64,000 nucleotides of DNA from Minisyncoccia bacterium (GTDB taxonomy: Bacteria > Patescibacteriota > Minisyncoccia > Phycocordibacterales > PALSA-1337). The notes below the pieces were generated by a model. The model ran no database searches, was not told the origin of the DNA, and saw nothing but the letters and a program-made list of their open reading frames with translations. Location: the NCBI GenBank assembly GCA_044228445.1, contig JBGAUV010000002.1:140600-204599 (forward strand). Direction: 5' to 3'. A program made the position numbers and the translations under genes. Shown here one piece after another: positions 1 through 16,030 of the stretch (positions are counted from its first letter, which is position 1; each line of letters opens with the position of its first letter).

Positions 1-112
1 CACGGCGTTGAACTGGTCTGAAGTCGTAAGAAGGGCTTACTTGGAGCAGAAAAGCGTACACAGGGGCGAACAGGTGGCAAGAAGGGGTAAGTTTGTTGCT
101 GGGTCGCTTCTC

Positions 113-934
113 TTATTTGAAATCACCACCACTTTCATTCTCAAATTCCTTTCTGTATTGCTTCCAGCCAACAAAGTTTCCTACACGCTCATTTTCACTA
201 AGCGCTTGGGCCACATGCTCGAAAGGACTCCAGTGTCCCGATGATGCCAATCGTTCGCAAAGTTTTACATCACTTTCAACATCAGATGGTTTTCCATCAA
301 ATAGGAAATAGCTAACTCGGGCAGAACGTGCCGCACTTATCTTTTTCTTGAGTTCCGCATCAAGTTTATTTTCTTCGCCCTTTACGAAAGGCAAATGCCA
401 TTCACCCACCTTAAGCTTATCTGGCTTGGTCGATTCGAATATATTTATGATCTGTTTTGCTACTACCTGAATCTCTGGTTGTGCCGCAGGGTTGTCACGA
501 AGTTTAAGAAAATTACCCCATTCGGTAGCAGTAAGAACGATCTCTGTCATGATCCAAGGCTCGATCAATCGATTCAGGATTTCTTTATGTAGACCAGCTT
601 TCTCACCAATGTAATGGAAGAAACAAGCCACATATCGGGACCAAAGCCACACACGTTTTATAACAAAAAGTCGGAATCCTGTGATGGCCTCACCTGATGC
701 CATGCCAGCTTTATTTTCCCCGAAATAAACTGGGATGAAAGGTGTCAGGAGTACACGTGCACGCATTTTCTTTGCAGGTACTGCACGGCTTGATGCTGCA
801 TTTCTTGAGAGTGATCGGTGACTATTGATGTGTGGTTGTATGAATTTTGGTACTTTCAAAACAAACGTTGCGATCTTTTTTCCAGTCGCTTCACATTCAG
901 AGAGTGCTATCAGTTTTGTAGTTATTTCATTCAT
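113..934 (-). CDS. ThyX-like (flavin-dependent thymidylate synthase family) protein, apparently circularly permuted
   Basis: N-terminal ~185 aa align to the C-terminal two-thirds of ThyX as I recall it: ATFVLKVPKFIQPHINSHRSLSRNAASSR ~ [31 protein letters not shown], and TATEWGNFLKLRDNPAAQPEIQVVAKQIINIF ~ [34 protein letters not shown]. C-terminal ~90 aa align to the ThyX N-terminus: ISAARSARVSY...SSGHWSPFEH ~ LSAVRAARVSF...KHGHETPFEH. ATGA start/stop overlap with the upstream gene at 931-934. Confidence 0.5.
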   Translation of the reverse strand: MNEITTKLIALSECEATGKKIATFVLKVPKFIQPHINSHRSLSRNAASSRAVPAKKMRARVLLTPFIPVYFGENKAGMASGEAITGFRLFVIKRVWLWSRYVACFFHYIGEKAGLHKEILNRLIEPWIMTEIVLTATEWGNFLKLRDNPAAQPEIQVVAKQIINIFESTKPDKLKVGEWHLPFVKGEENKLDAELKKKISAARSARVSYFLFDGKPSDVESDVKLCERLASSGHWSPFEHVAQALSENERVGNFVGWKQYRKEFENESGGDFK

Positions 935-2055
935 AACTTTTCAATGACATCAGTGACCATTTCTGGTACATCTACGAAGCCCGAGTCTTTGATGTTTGAA
1001 GTAGATGCATACAGGGCTGATCCATAAAGTAAGGCTATCGTTTTTTCTATTTCGATTGGCGTAGATTCATAGCGTTTACCCTTGAATGTGATTGGAAATC
1101 CGTTATTGATAAGAGTGATATTATTCCAACGAATATCGCCATGCACATTGTCGCTTGGTTGTGTGGCTCCATTTCTTAAAAAAGTTGCTGGAAATTCTCT
1201 GTCGGATGAGGACATGCTTATAAGATAGATGCCGCTTGTAATTTTCTTATCGAGTTTGGCGATTTGTTCTGGCGTTAGAATATTTTTTCCCGTAACTCCG
1301 ACGACAGTATTTATGCGATTTTTTACAATAAAATCGACAAGCTCTTTCTCTGAATGAAAAGCTGTATCATGTCCGGTTACAAAATATCCGGCTTCTTGAA
1401 GAATAAGCATGGTATTGTTGCCCATTGGTCCGAGTCCAACTACTAAAATGCGCGGTTCAGTTACATTGTATTTGCGTATTACGTCTTCGATGCGATCGCA
1501 GCCGAGGCGTGCAATAAGTGGGCTTTCTTTATCCAATTTTATTTTAGAACGAGCAACATTGATGATTGGGAAAGATATCGACTTATTCTCAAGTTTGCGA
1601 AAACCAGATGATGTCTGTTCAATACCGACAATTTTTACTGAAATTGGCAGTTTATCTTTACGCTCGTTGAAGATATTTAACAATTCAGCTCCGTCATCAA
1701 TAATAATTACTGTGCTGGTGTCACTCAGTTTTCCTATAAGCTTTGAAAACAAATCTTCACAATTTTCTCTGTGCTGGTCATCAAAGGAGATATTGGGATC
1801 GAATGCTGGTTGCTCTGCGTCGAACCCAGAATCTTGTAATTCTTTTAGTACTTCGGTATTGGTGGAATAGATTTTGCCAATAGTATGAATGTTTTCCTTA
1901 GGTATGCCGAAGTCGGAAAGGAGGGCGAACATTTTCTCTTGTGGCTCCATGAGGTGTTGACATGCGCAAATATGCACATCTTTCAGTGACTCGTTTTGTT
2001 TTGGGAAAGCATCGGTAATGGCTTTCAAAAGTGGATAATTGTAGGAGTCTTTCAT
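931..2055 (-). CDS. S-adenosyl-L-homocysteine hydrolase-like NAD(P)-binding Rossmann protein
   Basis: IVGIEQTSSGFRKL resembles the SAHH GVSEETTTGVHRL motif. NVARSKIKLDKESPLIARLGCDRIEDVIRKYNV..ILVVGLGPMG resembles SAHH [45 protein letters not shown]. GxGxxG dinucleotide fold. 4-nt overlap coupling to the ThyX-like gene. Confidence 0.45.
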   Translation of the reverse strand: MKDSYNYPLLKAITDAFPKQNESLKDVHICACQHLMEPQEKMFALLSDFGIPKENIHTIGKIYSTNTEVLKELQDSGFDAEQPAFDPNISFDDQHRENCEDLFSKLIGKLSDTSTVIIIDDGAELLNIFNERKDKLPISVKIVGIEQTSSGFRKLENKSISFPIINVARSKIKLDKESPLIARLGCDRIEDVIRKYNVTEPRILVVGLGPMGNNTMLILQEAGYFVTGHDTAFHSEKELVDFIVKNRINTVVGVTGKNILTPEQIAKLDKKITSGIYLISMSSSDREFPATFLRNGATQPSDNVHGDIRWNNITLINNGFPITFKGKRYESTPIEIEKTIALLYGSALYASTSNIKDSGFVDVPEMVTDVIEKL

Positions 2056-2203
2056 TTTTTAATGATATCACGGGGACGGATCAAATCCTTAATTTAAGCC
2101 CTTAGATAATAACATAAGTAGTTGACTTTGTAAAGTTTTTGTGCTAGTTTAACCTCAGTAATTTCCGAACGAAAAAACACTCAAAAAACGAAAGGACTTT
2201 GTC

Positions 2204-4066
2204 ATGAAAAAACAATACTGGCTGATTCCGCTTCTCCTGGTGGCATTCATCAGGGCGGAAATGGTCGTAACTCCCGCATGGGACAGTTACGGCAAACCGG
2301 AAATGATCACCTACAACGCCTCACGGCGTGTGTATGTTGATCGGACCAACCGGATGGAAAACTGGGCGATCGCATACCGCAACACCAGCGCAGAAACACA
2401 GAAAATCTACGAGGACTTGAAAAAGCCTTTGGAGATTCCGGCCAAGCGCAAGCTCGTTTTGAAGCTCCGGACAGATTTGTTCTGTGAACAAAGGAACTAC
2501 ACATGCGCAGGCATGATGTTCCTCTCGAAGCATTCTCAAAGACGGCGACTCGTTCTGATCAACGTCGAACGGAAAGCTGACTACGAGGCACAGTATCGGG
2601 TCTGGCCGCATCTTGGCATTCTCTCTGTCGGCACTGCTGCACATGAAGAAGGCTGGGAAGTTGTGCTCTGGGACGAACTTGTCCAAGGACATGCTCCTCT
2701 TGATAAGTTAATTCAGGAGGATGACATTGTCGGATTAAGTCTCATTGTCTCGGGCATTGAACGCGGCATCGATCTTGCTCATGAAGCCAAGGAACGTGGG
2801 GCTCGGTATGTCATCGCTGGAAACGATTCAGCAATCTTCCGAGCAAACCAACTCCTTCGGCTTCCCGACAAACCGATTGACGCGGTCTTCACTTCGAACA
2901 GCCTGAATGCGGTCCGTCGCTTCTTCCGAGAAATCAACAACACGGGCATTGAAGGTATCCGCATTGCCGACGTACAAACTACGCCGGATGTGCAGAATAA
3001 GTCCAATGAACGGAGTCAGTTACTCGTTGAGATGGGCGATCGCAAACAGCTCAAGGATAGAGGAAGGTTCGAATCGGATGATGTCTTCATTGTCCCGAAG
3101 CTCGATCTTTTCCCTGAATCCTACTGGCAGGAGGTCTGGACTAACTATCGGTCGCAGTTCGGGAAGAAACACTCGAACCCAACGACTGTAAAAAATGGTC
3201 TGGCGCTTCTCGCTCAGGGCTGCACCAGGACTCGAGGAATTGATGTGTGCAGGTATTGCAGCATCTACGGCGTTGGAGACCTTCGTTTCCCATACCGCAA
3301 ATACGTTGTGGACCTTGCTGAGACCCTGAAAAGTTTCGGCATCGATATGGTCTTCAATGCAACCGACTCGGCCTTCGAAATGCGTCCTGTAGTTCAATCC
3401 TTGATCGAGGAGAATATCCGCTTCAACGGCTTGGAAATATATGTACGAGCTCAAGGCATCGCTCGAGCTCCGCAGTTGCTCGAAGAATGGATGTCGGTCG
3501 TCAAAGACCGCTTCATTGTCAATTGCGGTATGGACTCCGGTGACGATACTTCGCTCAAGCAAGGCATTGTGAAGTCATCGGTTCGTGGAGGTTCGCGTTT
3601 CGGTGAGAATCGAGAAGCAGTCCTTAACCTCAAGAAAAGTGGGGCACATCTTCACTACTCGCTCATCTTCGGTTCGCCTGGAGAGACGAGGGATACATGC
3701 GAAAGAAGTATGGAGTTTCTTGAGTGGACGATCGATACCTTGGGGAATCAGTTGGATATCTGCGAAACAGATTACTTCTGGCTGAACTTCGGTTCACCGG
3801 CCGCGCAAGTCTTCCACGACTATTCCTACGCACAAGAGCTTGCTGCCATGGCTCAGAAGTCAATCTCAAGGGAGGAATGGGAAATCAACTTTGCAAGTGT
3901 CGCCGATGCACTATCTGTGCCTGACGATACGGAAAAAGCATGGTACCGATTCTTCACGAGGATTGATTACGATACTGCAACGGAATACAACGAACGAGCC
4001 AGGTTGCGAATGGAGAAGGTCACCGGTAGCATTCGTGGCCGAGCGTTCCTTCCGCCGGTAAGTTGA
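2204..4066 (+). CDS. radical SAM superfamily-like protein with N-terminal Rossmann/B12-binding-like region (non-canonical cluster motif)
   Basis: GCTRTRGIDVCRYCS gives a Cx8Cx2C triad where rSAM has CxxxCxxC. HYSLIFGSPGET matches the rSAM GxIxGxPGET-like motif. The upstream region LGILSVGTAAHEEGWEVVLWDE is Rossmann-like. RBS gaaagga lies 8 nt upstream. ~50% G+C by my count of a 200-nt sample. Confidence 0.4.
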   Translation: MKKQYWLIPLLLVAFIRAEMVVTPAWDSYGKPEMITYNASRRVYVDRTNRMENWAIAYRNTSAETQKIYEDLKKPLEIPAKRKLVLKLRTDLFCEQRNYTCAGMMFLSKHSQRRRLVLINVERKADYEAQYRVWPHLGILSVGTAAHEEGWEVVLWDELVQGHAPLDKLIQEDDIVGLSLIVSGIERGIDLAHEAKERGARYVIAGNDSAIFRANQLLRLPDKPIDAVFTSNSLNAVRRFFREINNTGIEGIRIADVQTTPDVQNKSNERSQLLVEMGDRKQLKDRGRFESDDVFIVPKLDLFPESYWQEVWTNYRSQFGKKHSNPTTVKNGLALLAQGCTRTRGIDVCRYCSIYGVGDLRFPYRKYVVDLAETLKSFGIDMVFNATDSAFEMRPVVQSLIEENIRFNGLEIYVRAQGIARAPQLLEEWMSVVKDRFIVNCGMDSGDDTSLKQGIVKSSVRGGSRFGENREAVLNLKKSGAHLHYSLIFGSPGETRDTCERSMEFLEWTIDTLGNQLDICETDYFWLNFGSPAAQVFHDYSYAQELAAMAQKSISREEWEINFASVADALSVPDDTEKAWYRFFTRIDYDTATEYNERARLRMEKVTGSIRGRAFLPPVS

Positions 4067-4083
4067 AGTTCTTTGATCACAAG

Positions 4084-4116
4084 GCCCTCTGGTTCACTCC
4101 GGAGGGTCTTTTTTCG
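4084..4116 (+). terminator. intrinsic terminator after the rSAM-like gene
   Basis: Hairpin CCCTCTGG-N6-CCGGAGGG (one G-U pair) followed by TCTTTTTT. Confidence 0.6.
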
Positions 4117-4133
4117 TGATAAAATGTAAAAAC

Positions 4134-4793
4134 ATGAAAGAAAAAGCCATTGAAATACTGACACAAGTCCAAAAAGATAACCCGTTCATTAAGTCTATTT
4201 ACCTCTGGGGATCGATTACGACAGACGAATATACTGAAGGAAAAAGTGATATAGATGCTATAGCTTTTGTTGAGGAAAACACAGATTCTTCTGCAAGAGA
4301 CAGGATCAATGAAGTTCTTAGTAAAGAAATTTCTAGTCTCAAGATTAATTTTCTTTATGAATCAGAGCTGAATGATGGTCCATCAAAAGGCGGTCTTACG
4401 AAAGTCATACATCCTGCAGTAATTCTTTATGATTTTCCTGCATGGATTTATATAGATGGTGCTCAGTATAGAAAAGAAGATTTTAGTTCAGGTAGAACCT
4501 CATTAGATGAAGTTATAGGTATTTTAACAAACACGATTAAGGACAGGTTCCTACCTATTCCAAACGAGCAGGATTGTGTTTATTTTGTAAAAGCAGTAGC
4601 AAAACTTTTATATTTCAAAAATCAGAGAAGCTTACCATTCAAAGCATTTCGGTATGCTGACTTGATCGTTGATTCTAATGTGGAGGACAAAGATATTGCA
4701 GTTATTATTAGTGAGCTAAAGAAATCAAGTTGGAATCGACAGTTAATAGCTGAAAAAGCACCAGAAATTATTTCTTTTGTTAACCGTCTATAG
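4134..4793 (+). CDS. Pol-beta superfamily nucleotidyltransferase, ANT/AadA/Lnu-like
   Basis: YLWGSITTDEYTEGKSDIDAIAFV matches the GS...[DE]hDhhhhV nucleotidyltransferase signature (compare AadA HLYGSAVDGGLKPHSDIDLLVTV). The track start at 4116 is GTG; ATG at 4134 (MKEKAIEIL) is more likely. Confidence 0.55.
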   Translation: MKEKAIEILTQVQKDNPFIKSIYLWGSITTDEYTEGKSDIDAIAFVEENTDSSARDRINEVLSKEISSLKINFLYESELNDGPSKGGLTKVIHPAVILYDFPAWIYIDGAQYRKEDFSSGRTSLDEVIGILTNTIKDRFLPIPNEQDCVYFVKAVAKLLYFKNQRSLPFKAFRYADLIVDSNVEDKDIAVIISELKKSSWNRQLIAEKAPEIISFVNRL

Positions 4794-4865
4794 ATTTTGA
4801 ATTTGGTAACTTATGGAGTATACTAGGGGTGTTAAAGAGATAGAGGTGGTCCCTTTCTGTAACCT

Positions 4866-5066
4866 ATGAATATGAAAGACAAATTTTTCAAATTTTACGC
4901 CAATCTTCCTATGAATCTTCGTAAGGAGATTGTTTTAGATTTGGGTGCAGACCAAGGTGGTCCTATCACTTGGGAAGTGGCCTATAGAGAAATAGATGCT
5001 GATACAGATTTGGGTAAAAAGATACTTGAAAAATTAATCGAGCTTAAATTCATTCCTACTGAATAA
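4866..5066 (+). CDS. small hypothetical protein (66 aa), paralog of the next ORF
   Basis: RBS agaggtgg upstream. Shares a GKK(I/L)LE/IE..L C-terminal motif and overall pattern with ORF 5070-5306. Confidence 0.4.
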   Translation: MNMKDKFFKFYANLPMNLRKEIVLDLGADQGGPITWEVAYREIDADTDLGKKILEKLIELKFIPTE

Positions 5067-5069
5067 ATT

Positions 5070-5306
5070 ATGAATCAAAATGTAACAAACAATCCAGTAG
5101 AATTAAACCAGGATATCATCAACTTGGTTATTGCTCGTTTGAAGACTATTCCCTCAAACGCAACCCTTTCTGTTGGTAGTGATAAAGAACCGATGTCAGC
5201 AGAAGTTCTTATTGAGGAAGTAAAGAAACAAACTGAAATTGGTAAGAAGCTTATTGAATCACAACTCTTTTTCTTGCGCTCTCTGCAGGATTTACCTGTA
5301 GCCTAA
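5070..5306 (+). CDS. small hypothetical protein (78 aa), paralog of the previous ORF
   Basis: Starts 4 nt after the previous stop. EIGKKLIESQLF resembles DLGKKILEKLIEL of the neighbour. Confidence 0.4.
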   Translation: MNQNVTNNPVELNQDIINLVIARLKTIPSNATLSVGSDKEPMSAEVLIEEVKKQTEIGKKLIESQLFFLRSLQDLPVA

Positions 5307-5314
5307 TATGATTT

Positions 5315-5938
5315 ATGTCACTTCTTATCACTCGCCCAAAATATGAATTGGTCACTCACTATTTCTACCATTGGAGTGAGGAAATTGTAAAAGAAGCTAA
5401 GAAAAGGATATCGAGCGTTATTGATCTTCAAAAAGAGAAGGCTTCTCGAAAACTTGTCGATAGTTATCTTGAGAAACAAAAGCCGGAGATAGCTATTTTC
5501 AATGGTCATGGCAATGATGTATGTATCACAGGACACAATCAAGAGGTCCTTATTGAGTCTGGTAAAAACTCTCACTTACTTAAGGACAAAGTTGTATATA
5601 TGCGCTCATGTGACTCTGGCAAGACGCTCGGACCACAGGCTATAAAAGAGGGCTGTAAGGCATTTATCGGTTATCGAGAACCTTTTAATATTTGGACAGA
5701 CAGAACGTCAGTCAATGAGCCTTTGAAAGATACATACGCTAAACCTTTCTTTGAAACTTCAAACGAAGTGCCACTTTCTCTAATCAAGGGCAAGACTGCC
5801 CGGGAAGCTCATAATGAAAGCATGACTGCATACCGTAAAGTTATCTCTCATCTGCTTACAAGCAATGCTGAAAACTCATTCGTAGTATCTGACCTTATTT
5901 GGAATATGCATAACCAGGTGTGTTTGGAGAAAAATTAG
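5315..5938 (+). CDS. hypothetical protein with His-Gly...Cys dyad reminiscent of clan CD (caspase-like) peptidases
   Basis: IAIFNGHGND and VVYMRSCDSG: each candidate catalytic residue follows a hydrophobic strand, His then Cys, ~35 aa apart. Assignment is tentative. Confidence 0.25.
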   Translation: MSLLITRPKYELVTHYFYHWSEEIVKEAKKRISSVIDLQKEKASRKLVDSYLEKQKPEIAIFNGHGNDVCITGHNQEVLIESGKNSHLLKDKVVYMRSCDSGKTLGPQAIKEGCKAFIGYREPFNIWTDRTSVNEPLKDTYAKPFFETSNEVPLSLIKGKTAREAHNESMTAYRKVISHLLTSNAENSFVVSDLIWNMHNQVCLEKN

Positions 5939-6432
5939 TGATGCATACATTTCTTAAAAAAGATTCATTGGATAGTTGGAATACATTGCCGCCGGTGCCA
6001 ACTGAAAAAATTATAAATGTAAATTGTCACAAATTTGTCTTATGCGAGTTAGGAAAAATTACTTGGGACAATATGGTCTCTGAGAGTAGGGACGAAGATT
6101 TCACTTTTGGTGAGAAAATTCGAGGTATATCAGATCTTTCTTATAGGCATATAACCACTCTCGAATCATTACTGTCACTTGCTGGTGAGGTGTGTAACGT
6201 CGGCAAGATTTACATTGGTCAAATCCGAGACTCGCAAACGGGAGAGATGGCACATTCATTTATTGTTGATGTGCAGCAGAATAATCATTATGTGTGCTTT
6301 GATAAGCCGGGGTTTAAATATCCCTTTCAAGTCAGCAATCTTGAGGAAATCTGGGGCTTCGTCAATAAAGATGGTGAGAGGTCAAATCAAAATCAAGAAT
6401 GGAGATTTATACCAATCGAGGAAGTGAGGTGA
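5920..6432 (+). CDS. hypothetical protein (170 aa)
   Basis: ORF overlapping the previous gene by 19 nt. No recognisable motif. Confidence 0.4.
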   Translation: MFGEKLVMHTFLKKDSLDSWNTLPPVPTEKIINVNCHKFVLCELGKITWDNMVSESRDEDFTFGEKIRGISDLSYRHITTLESLLSLAGEVCNVGKIYIGQIRDSQTGEMAHSFIVDVQQNNHYVCFDKPGFKYPFQVSNLEEIWGFVNKDGERSNQNQEWRFIPIEEVR

Positions 6433-6556
6433 ATATTGCGAACATTGTGCACTTTATCGGGTAAGCACGGCACTTAGGGATTGCAGAGCAAATTTAGTAT
6501 AATCCTTAACACCCGCCAGTTCTGAAAGCCAAGTTGAGGGGTCATGCAATAAAAAC

Positions 6557-6590
6557 AAAGGGCATCTATGATGCCTTTTGTTTTTGTTGC
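6557..6590 (+). terminator. intrinsic terminator
   Basis: AAAGGGCATC-TAT-GATGCCTTTT followed by TGTTTTTGTT. Confidence 0.55.
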
Positions 6591-6885
6591 ATATGATTCT
6601 ACTGGAGATGAGAAGGCCGGACTGAGCGAAGGCGAAGGAGGCGGGGTCGACAGCCGAGCTAGCAGGCGAGGACTAGTGACCGATTCCCTGCAGGGTCACG
6701 ATTGACTTTTATAAAAAGTATGCTATTATTTTAATGCTAGTTCTTTGATTATTTGTCATAGCTGAAAGTGACTTAATTTGTAGGTAATTTTCGGCTATGA
6801 CAAAACCGTGATTGCGGCAATGTCATCTTGTACAAAAAATGGTATTCCTTTCAAGGATACGCCAACAAAGTGAAAGACTAAACCA

Positions 6886-7638
6886 ATGAATGGTACAGCT
6901 GATAAGGTGGAAATTGAAGAAGTTGATCTGTGTGATGATGGAAGGAGCTTGCCAGGGACAGAGTTGTCCTTAGCACACTCACTTTTCTGTGCACTGCGAG
7001 ACGAAGGTTTTGATGAAAGTGACATTGGTAAGCTTGTAAAAGCAAAGCCTGAGTTGCTCGGGTATATCCTCGGATTTCTACGAGGAGAAGTTCAACTTCA
7101 CGATATTCCTTGCGAACTTGTAAACCTGGACAAACATCCTGGTATTAAGCGTGACAAGAAAAAGAAAATCAACTTGTTCAGGGATCTCAGATTGGGTACA
7201 TGGCTCACGGATTGGTCTGACGGGATAAAAATCGCTGGCAAGTATGTTGACATTGTTCGCCCGAGGGGATTAGGTCTGCAGAGCCGTGGCTTTTTTACCC
7301 GAAGTACACTCAATCCTGAAAAAAACAGGGATGAGTATTGTATCGACCTAAATGCGCAGGCGGCAAAGTGGTTCTATGAGAATCACAAAGACGCAACCCG
7401 TAACTTCTTTGAGTGTGTAGGTCGTATAGCGAAATCCGACGAATGGAATGATGATAAAATCTTCTTTTTGGGAACACTTTGGTCAGTGGATGGAGTAGCT
7501 CATGCCATGGCTTTGGTATCGGATAGTGAAGGTTATATTTACTGTCGACTCGAGCCACTTCCAAGTGGTGATTGGCCAGAGAACTGCTATATTGCTGTTC
7601 TGGTTGATAACCTAGAAGTGCTTAAGAGTTACAAGTAG
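6886..7638 (+). CDS. hypothetical protein (250 aa), GC-rich ORFan
   Basis: Long ORF with no recognisable motif. G+C clearly above backbone. Confidence 0.4.
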   Translation: MNGTADKVEIEEVDLCDDGRSLPGTELSLAHSLFCALRDEGFDESDIGKLVKAKPELLGYILGFLRGEVQLHDIPCELVNLDKHPGIKRDKKKKINLFRDLRLGTWLTDWSDGIKIAGKYVDIVRPRGLGLQSRGFFTRSTLNPEKNRDEYCIDLNAQAAKWFYENHKDATRNFFECVGRIAKSDEWNDDKIFFLGTLWSVDGVAHAMALVSDSEGYIYCRLEPLPSGDWPENCYIAVLVDNLEVLKSYK

Positions 7639-7674
7639 CGCTTCATAAGTTGAAGAACTTATTAAAATCTTCAA

Positions 7675-7702
7675 GCCACACCCCGATAGGTGTGGCTTTT
7701 AT
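7675..7702 (+). terminator. intrinsic terminator
   Basis: GCCACACC-CCGATA-GGTGTGGC followed by TTTTATC. A second small hairpin ATAAGTT-GAAG-AACTTAT sits at 7644-7662. Confidence 0.55.
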
Positions 7703-7774
7703 CATATTTAATTTTGCTATAAACAAAGACAATAATTTTTATTTATGCTAAATTAATTTAATACATAAACTAAC

Positions 7775-8374
7775 ATGCCCCAAAAACCCATTATAGCCAT
7801 TGATATTGATGATGTTCTTGCAGAAAATGCTCGTGGTTTTGTGGAATGGAGTAATAAAAGGTTTGATACTAGTTTAACTCCTGATGATTATAATGAACAT
7901 TGGTCTGAAATGTGGAAGATTGACAATGAAGAATTAGAAAAAAGAGCACATGAATTTCGTAACTCAGATCATGTTAGTGCATACAGTGCAATTCCGGGAG
8001 CTAAACAAGCTTTAGAAATACTTAAGACTAAATTCACACTTATTCTTATCACAAGTCGTGTGGCTACAATGAAAAATTTAACAAAAGAATGGATTGAAAA
8101 AAATTATCCAAATATCTTTAGTGACTATATCTTTTGTGGTTTTTATGATGGTCCTGTGTCCAGTGGTTTAAAATTAACAAAAGCAGAATTTGCAAAAGAT
8201 ATAAAAGCTGATTATTTAATAGATGATCAAGTTAAGCATGTGGAAGCATGTTCAAATCTAGGAATTAAATCATTATTATTTGGTAATTATTCTTGGAATA
8301 AGGATGTAAAGCTAAATAATAATATAACTAGGGTAAGTGATTGGGGAGAGGTGTTGAGATATTTTAATTTATAA
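7775..8374 (+). CDS. HAD-superfamily 5'(3')-deoxyribonucleotidase-like phosphatase
   Basis: N-terminal IAIDIDDVLA (DxDxV HAD motif I, like NT5C DMDGVLAD). ~200 aa. Confidence 0.55.
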   Translation: MPQKPIIAIDIDDVLAENARGFVEWSNKRFDTSLTPDDYNEHWSEMWKIDNEELEKRAHEFRNSDHVSAYSAIPGAKQALEILKTKFTLILITSRVATMKNLTKEWIEKNYPNIFSDYIFCGFYDGPVSSGLKLTKAEFAKDIKADYLIDDQVKHVEACSNLGIKSLLFGNYSWNKDVKLNNNITRVSDWGEVLRYFNL

Positions 8375-12142: not shown

Positions 12143-15100
12143 TTAAATTTCACCTGCATTTGATATTCTGAGTAAGGCTGTATTACTAAATTCATCTGGA
12201 ATCATTGGGTCTGCGCTAACACATTTCAAATAGAATGAGTATGTACCTGTTTCAGCTATCTTAGCTTCAAGTCCTAGTGCACTACCGTTTTTGCTATTAT
12301 TAAACCAATTCCATACAGCAGAACCATCGCTTCCATCTGGTTTAATTGTAACTGATGTACAACTATATCCACTCAAGTTATTACTCTTCCACGCTAGATT
12401 GAATGTTCCTGTTGGACCTACTTTGTAAGGTACTACTGCTTTTGGATCTCCGACTACAGGTGTTGTAATTGGCTTATCTATTACTCCAGAGCCACCAATA
12501 AATAATTTAATATTTGGATTAGATGTCACTATTGGAGGTGCAGGAGGTGGAGGATTCTGTCCATTGTTACCTCCTCCGCCGCCACCATTAATTGGATCTG
12601 GTGGAGGTGGTGGAGGAGCAGGTGATGTTACTGTTAATGTTACAGAGTTACTATTTATTGTTGGCGAGTTAGCTTTTGTACATGTGATAGAAAATATATA
12701 TGAACCATCAACTATAGATGAAAGGTTTGTTGGTAAAGAAGTGTTTGTACCAGTTATTGAACCTCCCCAAGCCCATATGCTATTTCCACTACTACCATCA
12801 GGTTTAACATTATTAAATGAACAACTATATCCAATAGGTGGGTTAGCCATTGTCCACTGCAAACCAAATGTATCACCTCTAACAACACTTGTAGAAGGAC
12901 CATAACTTACATCAACTGATTTTTTTATACCAAGACTTAGATTTGAAACGGGACAACCAATTGTAGTTACTTTAGGCGTTATGACACTTGCAACTGGTGA
13001 TGAAGCTAATGTCTTACCTGAAACTACAGCACTAATAACATAGTTATACTTTGTGCCAGTATTAAATACGGGATATTTTTCTGTATTCATTGTTGCAGAG
13101 CCAGATAGGGTATATGTTGCATCAATTTTGTTAATTACTGTATTTAATCTAGTTATTGTATATGAACTAGCATTTGGTATCGGACTCCATGTTTGACTTA
13201 CCCATAATTCAAGCGGTGTACATTTATCAGAAGAAGGTGTTACTGTAAATTGATAGTTCGGAGGAATAATAGGAGCGGGTTGAATTATAATCTTTACTGT
13301 ATTGCTTGATACTATATTTCCATTTGAACAAGATATATTGAGTGTATATGTTCCAATTTCAAGACCTGTAGTTTCCAAACTATTTGCTTGACCATTTATT
13401 TCGGTTCCATATGACCAGATTGAATTGTTTATATTACCAGTAGGCATTGTTGTCTTTTGGTCACATACGGTATAGTCGGGAGTCAAGTTGCTTGCCCATA
13501 GTAAATCAAATTTTTCACCAGAAACAACAGTCGCTGAATTATTCATACTTGATACCGAAGTTTGATAGGTATAGTTTGAAAAGTTAATATTTGAATCTGT
13601 GCTCTTTTTTATAAACAACTTGATTGATTTTGCTACTCCGACTGGACAACCCTCAAGTGGAGCGATTACTGATATTTGTGGAGAAGCTTGTTTTTCTATT
13701 CCACCAACAATAGCTGTAACTTTATAGTAATATTTTTTTCCGGTTTCAAATGTAAAGGTAGGATATACCTCAGTATTTTCTGTTCCTGTAACACTAAATA
13801 TTACCGTTTCTGGTGTACTATCCTTAATTCTGTATAGTTTGTATGAGGTAGCTCCTGGTACTGGACTCCACTTTTGTTTTATCCAAATATCATTTGCTGA
13901 ACATTGGTTTGAAGAAGTTGTAACTGTAAAATTATATACAGGAGGAAGTTCATTTATTGTTATTCTTGAAACATTACTTGTAACTGTATTTCCAGCGGTA
14001 TTTGTACAAGACAGCATTAGCTTATATGTACCGTATGGTTTATTTTGACTTGAAAGACCTGTAACTATTGAATTAAGTCCCGTACCATAAACCCAAAGAC
14101 TATTATTTGTATTATTATTAACATCCTGTGTTGCTTGTCTACATGTATAGTCAGGAGTCAAGTTGCTTACCCATCTTATGTCAAAAGTTTTTCCGGCAAA
14201 TAGACTTACATCGGTATTGGATGCAGAAGTAGTTGTTGTTAATGAATAATTAGACAAGTCTTTTGTCATATCAGTTGATTCTTTTGCAAATAGTTTTATT
14301 GATGGTGAAGCAACACTTTGTGGGCAATTTGCTCCAGTTAAGACTGTTGGTGAGAATGCAAAAACAGAAGGGGATAGTGCCTGCTCTGCTCCAGAAATTA
14401 CAGCTGAAACTTTATATTCATAAAGTTCACTAAATGAAAGTATTTTATCTTCAAATGTAATCTTTCCTGCAACCATATAGTATGGAGTGGTTGTGCTATA
14501 TACTTTTTCAGGTTCGTTCGTGTGCATTCTATAAAGTCTATATGAACTTGCTCCTGGAATTGGACTCCAACTTGCAGTAATTTTTAAATCACTCAAATTA
14601 CAACTATCTGCACTTCTGATTGCTGTAAGGTTATATGGTAATGGCGTAGATTGAACGCTTATATTATATGTTGTTGAGTGTGATATTGTTTGTCCACCAG
14701 TAGTTACAGTTGTGTTTATTGGAACAGAATTACAAGTAAAACCAGTTCCTATATTGTACGGATCACCGTTTATTGTATATCCGCCAGCACCACAACCATA
14801 AGGACCTGTCGCTACAGCTATTCTCTGATTTGCTATCATATCCTTACCTTGATCACCTAATATTTTAGTACCAGTAGATGTTAAACAATCTCCATCATCG
14901 TATTGAATACATTTAACTGAAAATTGTCCACCGTTATTGTAGTCGCTACTTGGAGAAAAACCTGAATCCTTACTACAACCAAAATAGAAACCGTTATACA
15001 TTGTAGGAGAGTTATCATGTGTCCAGTCTACCTTACAATAATAAACATATGGTGTGGTATTTGTTGTTGTAACTACTGTTGTACCTTGTTTTGTATATGT

Positions 15101-16030
15101 ACCTGTAACTTTAACTGTATATGTACCTGGGACTGTACTACCCAATGACTGCACTCTTAGAGTAGAATTTGAACTAGGTGTTAATACTCTTTGTCCGAAA
15201 GCAGTACTACCTACAATAAGACCAGTACTTAAGTCCTTTACTTCAGCACCTGAAGAATCTTTTATTGAATCTACATTTAATGTTACTTCACCAGTAGCAC
15301 CAGCATTTAAATTTGTTAGGCTTATTATACTATCAGCAGGGTCACCAATTATGATAGTTTTATTTCCATCATTTGATATTCCGAAATCAAAACTAGGTGT
15401 TGAAGCTGTATTTGATACAGTAAAGTTAATTGAATCAACACCAATATAGTTATCACCGGTATTATTTGGAAAAAATAGATTGTAATTTGTCCAGGGGTAT
15501 CTGGTTCCTAATCCATCATATAGTACTGGTTGTTCAGCAATTTGTTTTAACCTGGGTATTGTTGTTCCATCTATATAACCAGGAGTAATATCACTTGCTG
15601 CATTGAAGAAAACATGTAGTGTATAGTTTCCTGGCTGAAGGTTTGATAATAAAGTAGAATTGTTTAAATCTGTTTTAATTACATTACTATTTATAATCAT
15701 TCCATTTGGTACTGGGTCATCTGCCCAAAAATCTGTTTTAGCAGGTATTTGAGGATTATAATTAAAACTAGAATTATTTGTTACTCTATATCCTGCAAGT
15801 ATAGTTCTTGATCCATATGTTTTTGGGAAAGTAAGAGAAAGTTGCAAAGAATCACCAGTATTAAAGCTTGTTTTGTTTATGCTTACATTTGCTGTACCGA
15901 TATTTGCACCAATAGTTGAATTTGAGAGATTTACAGTGTTAGCTTTAGCTGTATTTGTAAATATAAAACCAAGAGATAGTACAAATAGTGAAATTGTTAA
16001 TTTATAGGAATTTATTTTCATTTTTTTCAT
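12143..16030 (-). CDS. giant secreted/cell-surface protein (1295 aa) with tandem Ig/FN3-like repeat modules
   Basis: Signal peptide. ~230-aa modules repeated 3-4 times (KLF.K.STD...NLTPDYTC...SIW.YGT...GTY.L..C.N, then WSP(I/V)PGA(S/T)SY.LYR). Pro/Gly linker PPPPPPDPINGGGGGGNNGQNPPPPAPP. Confidence 0.75.
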   Translation of the reverse strand: MKKMKINSYKLTISLFVLSLGFIFTNTAKANTVNLSNSTIGANIGTANVSINKTSFNTGDSLQLSLTFPKTYGSRTILAGYRVTNNSSFNYNPQIPAKTDFWADDPVPNGMIINSNVIKTDLNNSTLLSNLQPGNYTLHVFFNAASDITPGYIDGTTIPRLKQIAEQPVLYDGLGTRYPWTNYNLFFPNNTGDNYIGVDSINFTVSNTASTPSFDFGISNDGNKTIIIGDPADSIISLTNLNAGATGEVTLNVDSIKDSSGAEVKDLSTGLIVGSTAFGQRVLTPSSNSTLRVQSLGSTVPGTYTVKVTGTYTKQGTTVVTTTNTTPYVYYCKVDWTHDNSPTMYNGFYFGCSKDSGFSPSSDYNNGGQFSVKCIQYDDGDCLTSTGTKILGDQGKDMIANQRIAVATGPYGCGAGGYTINGDPYNIGTGFTCNSVPINTTVTTGGQTISHSTTYNISVQSTPLPYNLTAIRSADSCNLSDLKITASWSPIPGASSYRLYRMHTNEPEKVYSTTTPYYMVAGKITFEDKILSFSELYEYKVSAVISGAEQALSPSVFAFSPTVLTGANCPQSVASPSIKLFAKESTDMTKDLSNYSLTTTTSASNTDVSLFAGKTFDIRWVSNLTPDYTCRQATQDVNNNTNNSLWVYGTGLNSIVTGLSSQNKPYGTYKLMLSCTNTAGNTVTSNVSRITINELPPVYNFTVTTSSNQCSANDIWIKQKWSPVPGATSYKLYRIKDSTPETVIFSVTGTENTEVYPTFTFETGKKYYYKVTAIVGGIEKQASPQISVIAPLEGCPVGVAKSIKLFIKKSTDSNINFSNYTYQTSVSSMNNSATVVSGEKFDLLWASNLTPDYTVCDQKTTMPTGNINNSIWSYGTEINGQANSLETTGLEIGTYTLNISCSNGNIVSSNTVKIIIQPAPIIPPNYQFTVTPSSDKCTPLELWVSQTWSPIPNASSYTITRLNTVINKIDATYTLSGSATMNTEKYPVFNTGTKYNYVISAVVSGKTLASSPVASVITPKVTTIGCPVSNLSLGIKKSVDVSYGPSTSVVRGDTFGLQWTMANPPIGYSCSFNNVKPDGSSGNSIWAWGGSITGTNTSLPTNLSSIVDGSYIFSITCTKANSPTINSNSVTLTVTSPAPPPPPPDPINGGGGGGNNGQNPPPPAPPIVTSNPNIKLFIGGSGVIDKPITTPVVGDPKAVVPYKVGPTGTFNLAWKSNNLSGYSCTSVTIKPDGSDGSAVWNWFNNSKNGSALGLEAKIAETGTYSFYLKCVSADPMIPDEFSNTALLRISNAGEI

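Follow-up and report, generated by a model that had tools for sequence, protein, structure and literature searches.

A ThyX-like protein with a rearranged order of segments in a Minisyncoccia bacterium, and the large family to which it belongs

What is encoded at the start of the stretch of DNA examined here, a window of 64,000 nucleotides from a Minisyncoccia bacterium (contig JBGAUV010000002.1 of assembly GCA_044228445.1)? An intact open reading frame at this site specifies a relative of ThyX, the flavin-dependent thymidylate synthase, in which the segments of the canonical enzyme follow one another in a different order. An earlier note on this DNA had read the gene as a naturally circularly permuted ThyX, and all motifs that it quoted are present in the 273-residue protein. 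In the layout below, residue numbers are those of this protein, and Tm denotes native numbering of the Thermotoga maritima enzyme (TmThyX); secondary structure was taken from an AlphaFold2 (AF2) model.

Gene layout and order of the ThyX segments

113..934, minus strand: rearranged ThyX-like gene, intact open reading frame with ATG start, 273 aa and stop codon
878..934, minus strand: aa 1-19, N-terminal beta-strand (aa 5-14) and turn (AF2 secondary structure)
410..877, minus strand: aa 20-175, ThyX core, equal to Pfam Thy1 59-190 (Tm ~61-199), holding R122 and R146 (profile matches)
785..823, minus strand: aa 38-50, SHRSLSRNAASSR, the ThyX signature with its first Arg replaced (59-sequence alignment)
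aa 139-156, within the same protein: WGNFLKLRDNPAAQPEIQ motif
347..409, minus strand: aa 176-196, linker with the family-specific GEWHLPF motif, H180 and P182 invariant (alignment, AF2)
209..346, minus strand: aa 197-242, relocated helical hairpin, equal to Thy1 12-58 (Tm 18-60; profile matches, hhalign E=1.4e-9)
aa 200-209, within the relocated hairpin: SAARSARVSY (R203, R206, S208)
aa 233-240, within the relocated hairpin: GHWSPFEH (H234, corresponding to Tm H53; E239, H240)
116..208, minus strand: aa 243-273, C-terminal tail GNFxGWKQYRKEF (conservation in the alignment)
C-terminus of the 273-aa protein: FVGWKQYRKEFENESGGDFK

In canonical ThyX (T. maritima TM0449, PDB 1KQ4 and 1O26; M. tuberculosis, 2AF6; families PF02511 and TIGR02170), the alpha1-alpha2 hairpin with its RxxRxS and GH..PFEH motifs (Tm ~18-60) is placed between the N-terminal strand and the core, whereas here the core precedes the hairpin, to which it is connected by the linker. 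Against the Pfam profile Thy1 (PF02511), the whole protein scores 48.4 bits (E=1.3e-12; gathering cut-off 24.8 bits), which places it in the ThyX/Thy1 superfamily, and it is matched in two stretches. Scanned separately, both halves match ThyX over complementary ranges: aa 1-175 alone yields Thy1 59-190 at aa 22-171 (E=1.5e-7, 31.9 bits), and aa 176-273 alone yields Thy1 12-58 at aa 200-242 (E=6e-4) as well as TIGR02170 positions 14-59 (E=3e-5). The assignments made from the letters alone, of the N-terminal part to the C-terminal portion of ThyX and of the C-terminal part to the ThyX N-terminus, are thus borne out. The order breaks exactly at profile position 58/59, directly past the PFEH motif.

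A family profile built from 59 homologues, down to 43% identity (A1), led to the same correspondence when compared with the PDB sequences, aligning aa 197-242 to Tm 18-60, aa 21-50 to Tm 61-90, and aa 132-171 to Tm 160-199. For the native numbering, a 12-residue tag offset in the PDB entries was subtracted and verified, and the mutants S88A, R174K and Y91F confirm it. In native order, hhalign finds only 73 columns in common with TmThyX (E=1.1e-7). With the C-terminal module moved to the front, a single colinear alignment over Tm 18-200 results, with 176 columns and E ~1e-12 to 1e-13; the module by itself (aa 196-242) reaches E=1.4e-9. The permuted order of the ThyX segments is thereby confirmed as real, being neither a frameshift nor an artefact.

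How the order came about is a separate matter. Of the proposed circular permutation, the permuted order of segments stands, substantiated by the half profiles, the re-ordering and the fold match described below, whereas its strict form is a separate claim. A strict permutation would have proceeded by tandem duplication of thyX and trimming of both ends, leaving the tail as a vestige of a second beta3/alpha3/RHR segment. It would account for the succession of Thy1 59-190 and 12-58 with its exact break, for the colinearity regained on re-ordering, and for an alignment of aa 196-271 to Tm 18-90 in which the tail falls in register with Tm 75-91. The order of Thy1 12-190 is cyclically shifted; under a circular permutation, the N-terminal strand (aa 5-14) and the tail would be new terminal elements. 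However, when the tail is taken by itself (aa 243-273), its best local alignment to TmThyX, again residues 75-91 in register, has E=0.59 and contributes only ~2.6 score units. Nor did the tail (aa 236-273) resemble the RHR region near the N-terminus of the same protein (aa 1-60) when the two were compared as profiles in hhalign. The earlier note's idea of a degenerate second copy of RHR therefore lacks statistical support and was dropped. As homology between tail and RHR region is undetectable, the main argument for an origin by duplication and trimming is gone. Moreover, a strand precedes beta3 where remnants of alpha2 would be predicted, and tandem ThyX domains, the expected intermediates, were absent from the ten longest of the best 150 cluster representatives scanned. 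For the strand itself, hhalign of aa 1-20 against TmThyX gave no signal. An equally good alternative is that the alpha1-alpha2 hairpin, once encoded between the N-terminal strand and beta3, was shifted to the C-terminus; both orderings obtain equal hhalign scores. We therefore regard a strict permutation as possible, though doubtful.

A large family with conserved catalytic residues

The rearrangement is not peculiar to this gene: it is the hallmark of a very large family whose members have for long carried the annotation thymidylate synthase. A homologue search retrieved 3,897 proteins, of which the best 120 are all colinear with the query over 56-100% of its length. Colinearity extends over at least 97% in 91 of these 120; where it is shorter, the protein is truncated (162-232 aa), whereas full-length members span 266-346 aa. 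An exhaustive profile search of 1.84 billion cluster representatives (clusters at 50% identity) retrieved 6,824 clusters with E<=1e-3, of which 4,206 reach E<=1e-30; the top 150 representatives all match profile positions ~2-273 in order. The protein encoded here shares the full-length colinear arrangement and the motifs GEWHLPF, SxARCARVSY, GHWSPFEH and GNFxGWKQYRK that characterize this subfamily. The conserved GEWHLPF linker and GNFxGWKQYRK tail go beyond canonical ThyX.

Within bacterial and archaeal genomes, taken at one genome per species, 413 loci hold a relative. The closest are found in the candidate phyla radiation (CPR), with 75% identity in Ca. Tayloriibacteriota and 57-63% in Saccharibacteria, followed at 39-46% by many Eremiobacterota/Vulcanimicrobiota, Acidobacteriota, Thermosynechococcus and others. 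On one Eremiobacterota chromosome, the gene comes directly after ftsA-ftsZ and shows the same two-part Pfam pattern. In phages, tblastn found 1,021 records, 1,001 of which cover at least 80% of the query; of those listed, most bear the name 'FAD-dependent thymidylate synthase' or simply 'thymidylate synthase'. The latter is also the name of PHROG 85, which matches aa 21-267 with E=9.5e-57. Its phage proteins, among them rV5 ORF106 (ABI79172.1), ICP1 gp193 (QVV99405.1) and those of N4-like, Pakpunavirus and Campylobacter phages, belong to the same subfamily, being colinear over ~95% of their length at 30-41% identity. They differ in being longer (~320 aa, with inserts), in their setting among ribonucleotide reductase (RNR) and other nucleotide-metabolism genes, and in lacking the partner gene introduced below. 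rV5 ORF106 and ICP1 gp193 lie near RNR genes and start at Thy1 position 60 near their N-termini. We know of no biochemical characterization of the PHROG 85 phage proteins.

The ten long members mentioned above contain inteins or additional sequence at one of the termini, in one case a MazG domain. Inteins or LAGLIDADG endonuclease domains occur in the rearranged ThyX proteins P0275, P0280, P0348, P0333 and P0353; in P0280 and P0348, the match is broken at about profile position 234-236, which corresponds to GH|WSPFEH, the catalytic motif. In P0313 (456 aa), an N-terminal MazG nucleotide pyrophosphohydrolase domain is fused to the rearranged ThyX, which fits a route from dUTP via deoxyuridine monophosphate (dUMP) to thymidine monophosphate (dTMP). 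Both the inteins and the MazG fusion are in keeping with an important enzyme of nucleotide metabolism, inteins being typical of essential enzymes in this field. In some phages, among them Escherichia phage vB_EcoM-ECP26 (proteins A0A4Y5TVX3, 245 aa, and A0A4Y5TVY4, 97 aa) and Flavobacterium phage Fpv3, the rearranged gene is annotated as two proteins or lies beside an HNH endonuclease. A split of the gene, or the insertion of a mobile element, may have occurred there close to the junction of core and relocated module.

Across the 59 aligned sequences, 37 columns are invariant. They include the counterparts of the following TmThyX residues, several of which come from the relocated hairpin:

Tm R25, R28 and S30: R203, R206 and S208
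Tm H53: H234
Tm E58 and H59: E239 and H240
Tm H79 and R80: H39 and R40
Tm S83: S43
Tm S88: S48
Tm R90: R50
Tm R147: R122
Tm R174: R146

The functional roles of these residues, as well as those of Tm R78, E86 and Y91, are known from the ThyX literature, in which the canonical signature is given as RHRX7-8S. The signature here departs from it, reading S38-H39-R40-X7-S48 with H, R and S invariant; the family consensus of aa 38-50 is THRxLSRNSASSR, in which H39, R40, S43, S48, S49 and R50 are invariant. The loss of the first Arg of RHR, correctly recognized in the earlier note, takes the form of Ser at aa 38 and Thr in the consensus, and extends across the whole rearranged family. The tail is strongly conserved as well, with N253 and R261 invariant and W257, Q259, K262 and E267 conserved to at least 90%. 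As a speculation, the invariant R261 could make up for the missing Arg (Tm R78).

The AF2 model, computed on A1, has the ThyX fold and forms a single compact unit (mean predicted local distance difference test score 93.3, predicted template modelling score 0.89). In a tight hairpin, the N-terminal strand (aa 5-14) is paired with the strand that opens the core (aa 20-29) and corresponds to ThyX beta3. When compared with viral models in Foldseek, proteins of the same subfamily match over the full length (TMq 0.91, 275 columns), whereas most phage ThyX proteins of canonical order match over only ~150-180 columns (TMq 0.40-0.47), as would be expected of a sequential aligner if the core alone can be matched in order. 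Judging by sequence homology and motif conservation, aa 197-242 are probably the spatial equivalent of Tm 18-60. A mean-field direct coupling analysis of 243 family sequences (effective number ~197), aimed at contacts of the relocated module, was uninformative, as artefacts of gaps and indels prevailed.

Probable function and competing readings

What can be said about the role of this protein? In our reading, it belongs to a large and ancient subfamily of ThyX/Thy1, within which it is nothing unusual; we put the probability of this reading at roughly 0.7. Its most likely function would be the flavin-dependent methylation of dUMP to dTMP. For this speak the homology of both pieces, the ThyX core fold, and the fact that Tm H53, H79, R80, S88, R90, R147 and R174 have counterparts conserved throughout the family. 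The context of relatives speaks for it as well, namely the nearby RNR genes in phages, the MazG fusion, the inteins, and the position after ftsA-ftsZ. In such a scenario, the relocated hairpin would take the same place in space as the canonical one, a ThyX-type oligomer would assemble and bind flavin adenine dinucleotide (FAD), and NAD(P)H and methylene-tetrahydrofolate would be used to methylate dUMP via the flavin, as in canonical ThyX.

Several observations weigh against this reading. No assayed or solved member of the rearranged subfamily was found. With the single sequence, the best PDB match has E ~2e-5. In contrast to canonical ThyX, the protein remains below the equivalog cut-off of TIGR02170 (49.9 against 87.9 bits), and three Tm residues lack a conserved counterpart, namely R78 (replaced by Ser here and by Thr in the consensus), E86 (by A/S) and Y91 (by Ala). 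Its best structural neighbour is no housekeeping enzyme but PolB (PDB 4P5A), the C5-methylase of uridine monophosphate (UMP) and dUMP in polyoxin antibiotic biosynthesis. Finally, the coupling and fusion to an enzyme resembling S-adenosyl-L-homocysteine hydrolase (SAHH) in CPR bacteria could hint at a different substrate. The gene of this enzyme lies immediately upstream:

931..2055, minus strand: SAHH-like enzyme using nicotinamide adenine dinucleotide (NAD), 374 aa, upstream partner (ORF list, profile and structure comparison)

Its stop overlaps the start of the ThyX-like gene by 4 nt, and the ThyX-like gene is translationally coupled to it. Compared with SAH hydrolase, the partner is ~60-100 residues shorter and 18% identical, reaches 27 bits against the 498-bit cut-off of TIGR00936, and is confined to CPR bacteria, some of which have it fused with the ThyX-like protein. 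In the CPR clade, where it is the conserved operon partner, it precedes the ThyX-like gene at 16 of 16 loci, whereas it does so at none of the more distant loci, and three natural fusions of 642-651 aa exist in CPR bacteria (P0204, P0206 and P0217). However, homologues of 47-52% identity stand alone in other CPR genomes, such that the linkage is frequent but not obligatory, and an obligatory linkage was rejected.

On these grounds, the CPR protein could be imagined not as a housekeeping synthase but as an enzyme acting with its partner on another nucleoside or nucleotide, for instance by methylating UMP or some modified nucleotide in the manner of PolB in polyoxin biosynthesis. The consistent pairing with its overlap, the fusions and the resemblance to PolB are what this proposal draws upon, along with a nucleotidyltransferase and an NT5C-like 5'-nucleotidase close by in a GC-rich stretch. 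However, all invariant residues are common to the CPR, phage and Eremiobacterota members, the latter two of which resemble ordinary suppliers of dTMP. The SAHH-like protein, occurring by itself and away from ThyX-like genes in other CPR genomes, may be no more than a compact version of SAH hydrolase used in the CPR. PolB itself has the canonical segment order, unlike the rearranged protein, and in contrast to its setting there is no sign of a nucleoside-antibiotic cluster here. PADLOC defence models matched neither the ThyX-like protein nor its partner, nor the radical SAM protein encoded next to them. Taken together, an activity on another substrate appears unlikely. Similarly improbable, in our estimate, is a more far-reaching proposal, in which rearranged ThyX would represent a distinct class of flavin-dependent nucleotide methylases that, in CPR bacteria, is complexed with or fused to a minimal SAHH-like NAD enzyme, carrying out either a transformation other than dTMP formation or a dTMP synthesis newly coupled to the methyl cycle.

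That the gene is merely a frameshifted, misassembled or decaying ordinary thyX is refuted: while it lies 112 nt from the window edge in a mosaic region of atypical GC content, and three assemblies end at window position 2213, the identical 273-aa protein and 2,213 identical bases in three independent assemblies exclude the assembly artefact that the earlier note had wished to see excluded, and full-length colinear homologues in their thousands, the cluster search, the invariant columns and the confident single-domain AF2 model leave practically no room for decay.

The proteins of this family have thus been annotated for many years; what seems to be new is their chain order at the level of the whole family, which is apparently undescribed, with apparently no member characterized. 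A full-text literature search, outside of which most subscription journals lie, brought up only unrelated uses of the word 'permuted' and no paper on a ThyX of permuted or rearranged order, and the earlier note's remark that none had been described stands so far. A paper on an Asgard ThyX models the enzyme on canonical ThyX structures and leaves a rearranged order unmentioned. A study of Pakpunavirus treats the flavin-dependent thymidylate synthase as an ordinary enzyme of the dTMP pathway, together with dCMP deaminase and RNR (PMC12846349).

The rearranged subfamily covers the presumed thymidylate synthases of rV5, ICP1, N4-like and Pakpunavirus phages and of lineages such as Eremiobacterota, and annotation by motif or equivalog can miss or mis-score its members. 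ThyX is of interest as a drug target and as a classic example of non-homologous enzyme replacement, and every solved ThyX structure that was found follows the canonical order. Work on the inhibitors and the mechanism of canonical ThyX may not carry over to the rearranged proteins, which constitute a natural experiment on how far a multi-subunit active site tolerates an altered chain connectivity. The SAHH-like pairing and fusion in CPR bacteria may, in addition, offer a lead into the one-carbon and nucleotide metabolism of organisms with minimal genomes.

Genomic surroundings

The first 4 kb of the window have a GC content of 39-52%, compared with ~31% for most of the remainder, and the region from position 1 to ~8400 is a GC-atypical mosaic in which several open reading frames have no family match. 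In an independent contig (L001), which continues beyond the window start with its positions 2380-8013, the ThyX-like gene is followed by four genes without family match and a large serine recombinase of 563 aa (PHROG 95 integrase), beyond which lie murE, a penicillin-binding-protein gene and rsmH. This succession of recombinase and cell-wall genes makes it probable that the ThyX-like gene resides inside an integrative element. The neighbouring features are:

2204..4066, plus strand: B12-binding radical SAM protein, 620 aa, divergent, ~50% GC in a ~31% GC genome
4116..4793: nucleotidyltransferase, neighbour in the GC-rich region
7775..8374: NT5C-like 5'-deoxynucleotidase, neighbour in the GC-rich region
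12143..16030, minus strand: 1,295-aa open reading frame whose sole Pfam match is a weak Y_Y_Y domain

Three independent Logan contigs that are identical to window positions 1-2213 stop exactly at 2213, 10 nt into the radical SAM gene, suggesting that strains differ at this junction or that the assembly breaks there. Scans for tRNA genes and for Rfam families at gathering score gave none in the 64-kb window. At ~36 kb, the GC skew changes sign from positive to strongly negative, in agreement with a switch of the predominant coding strand.
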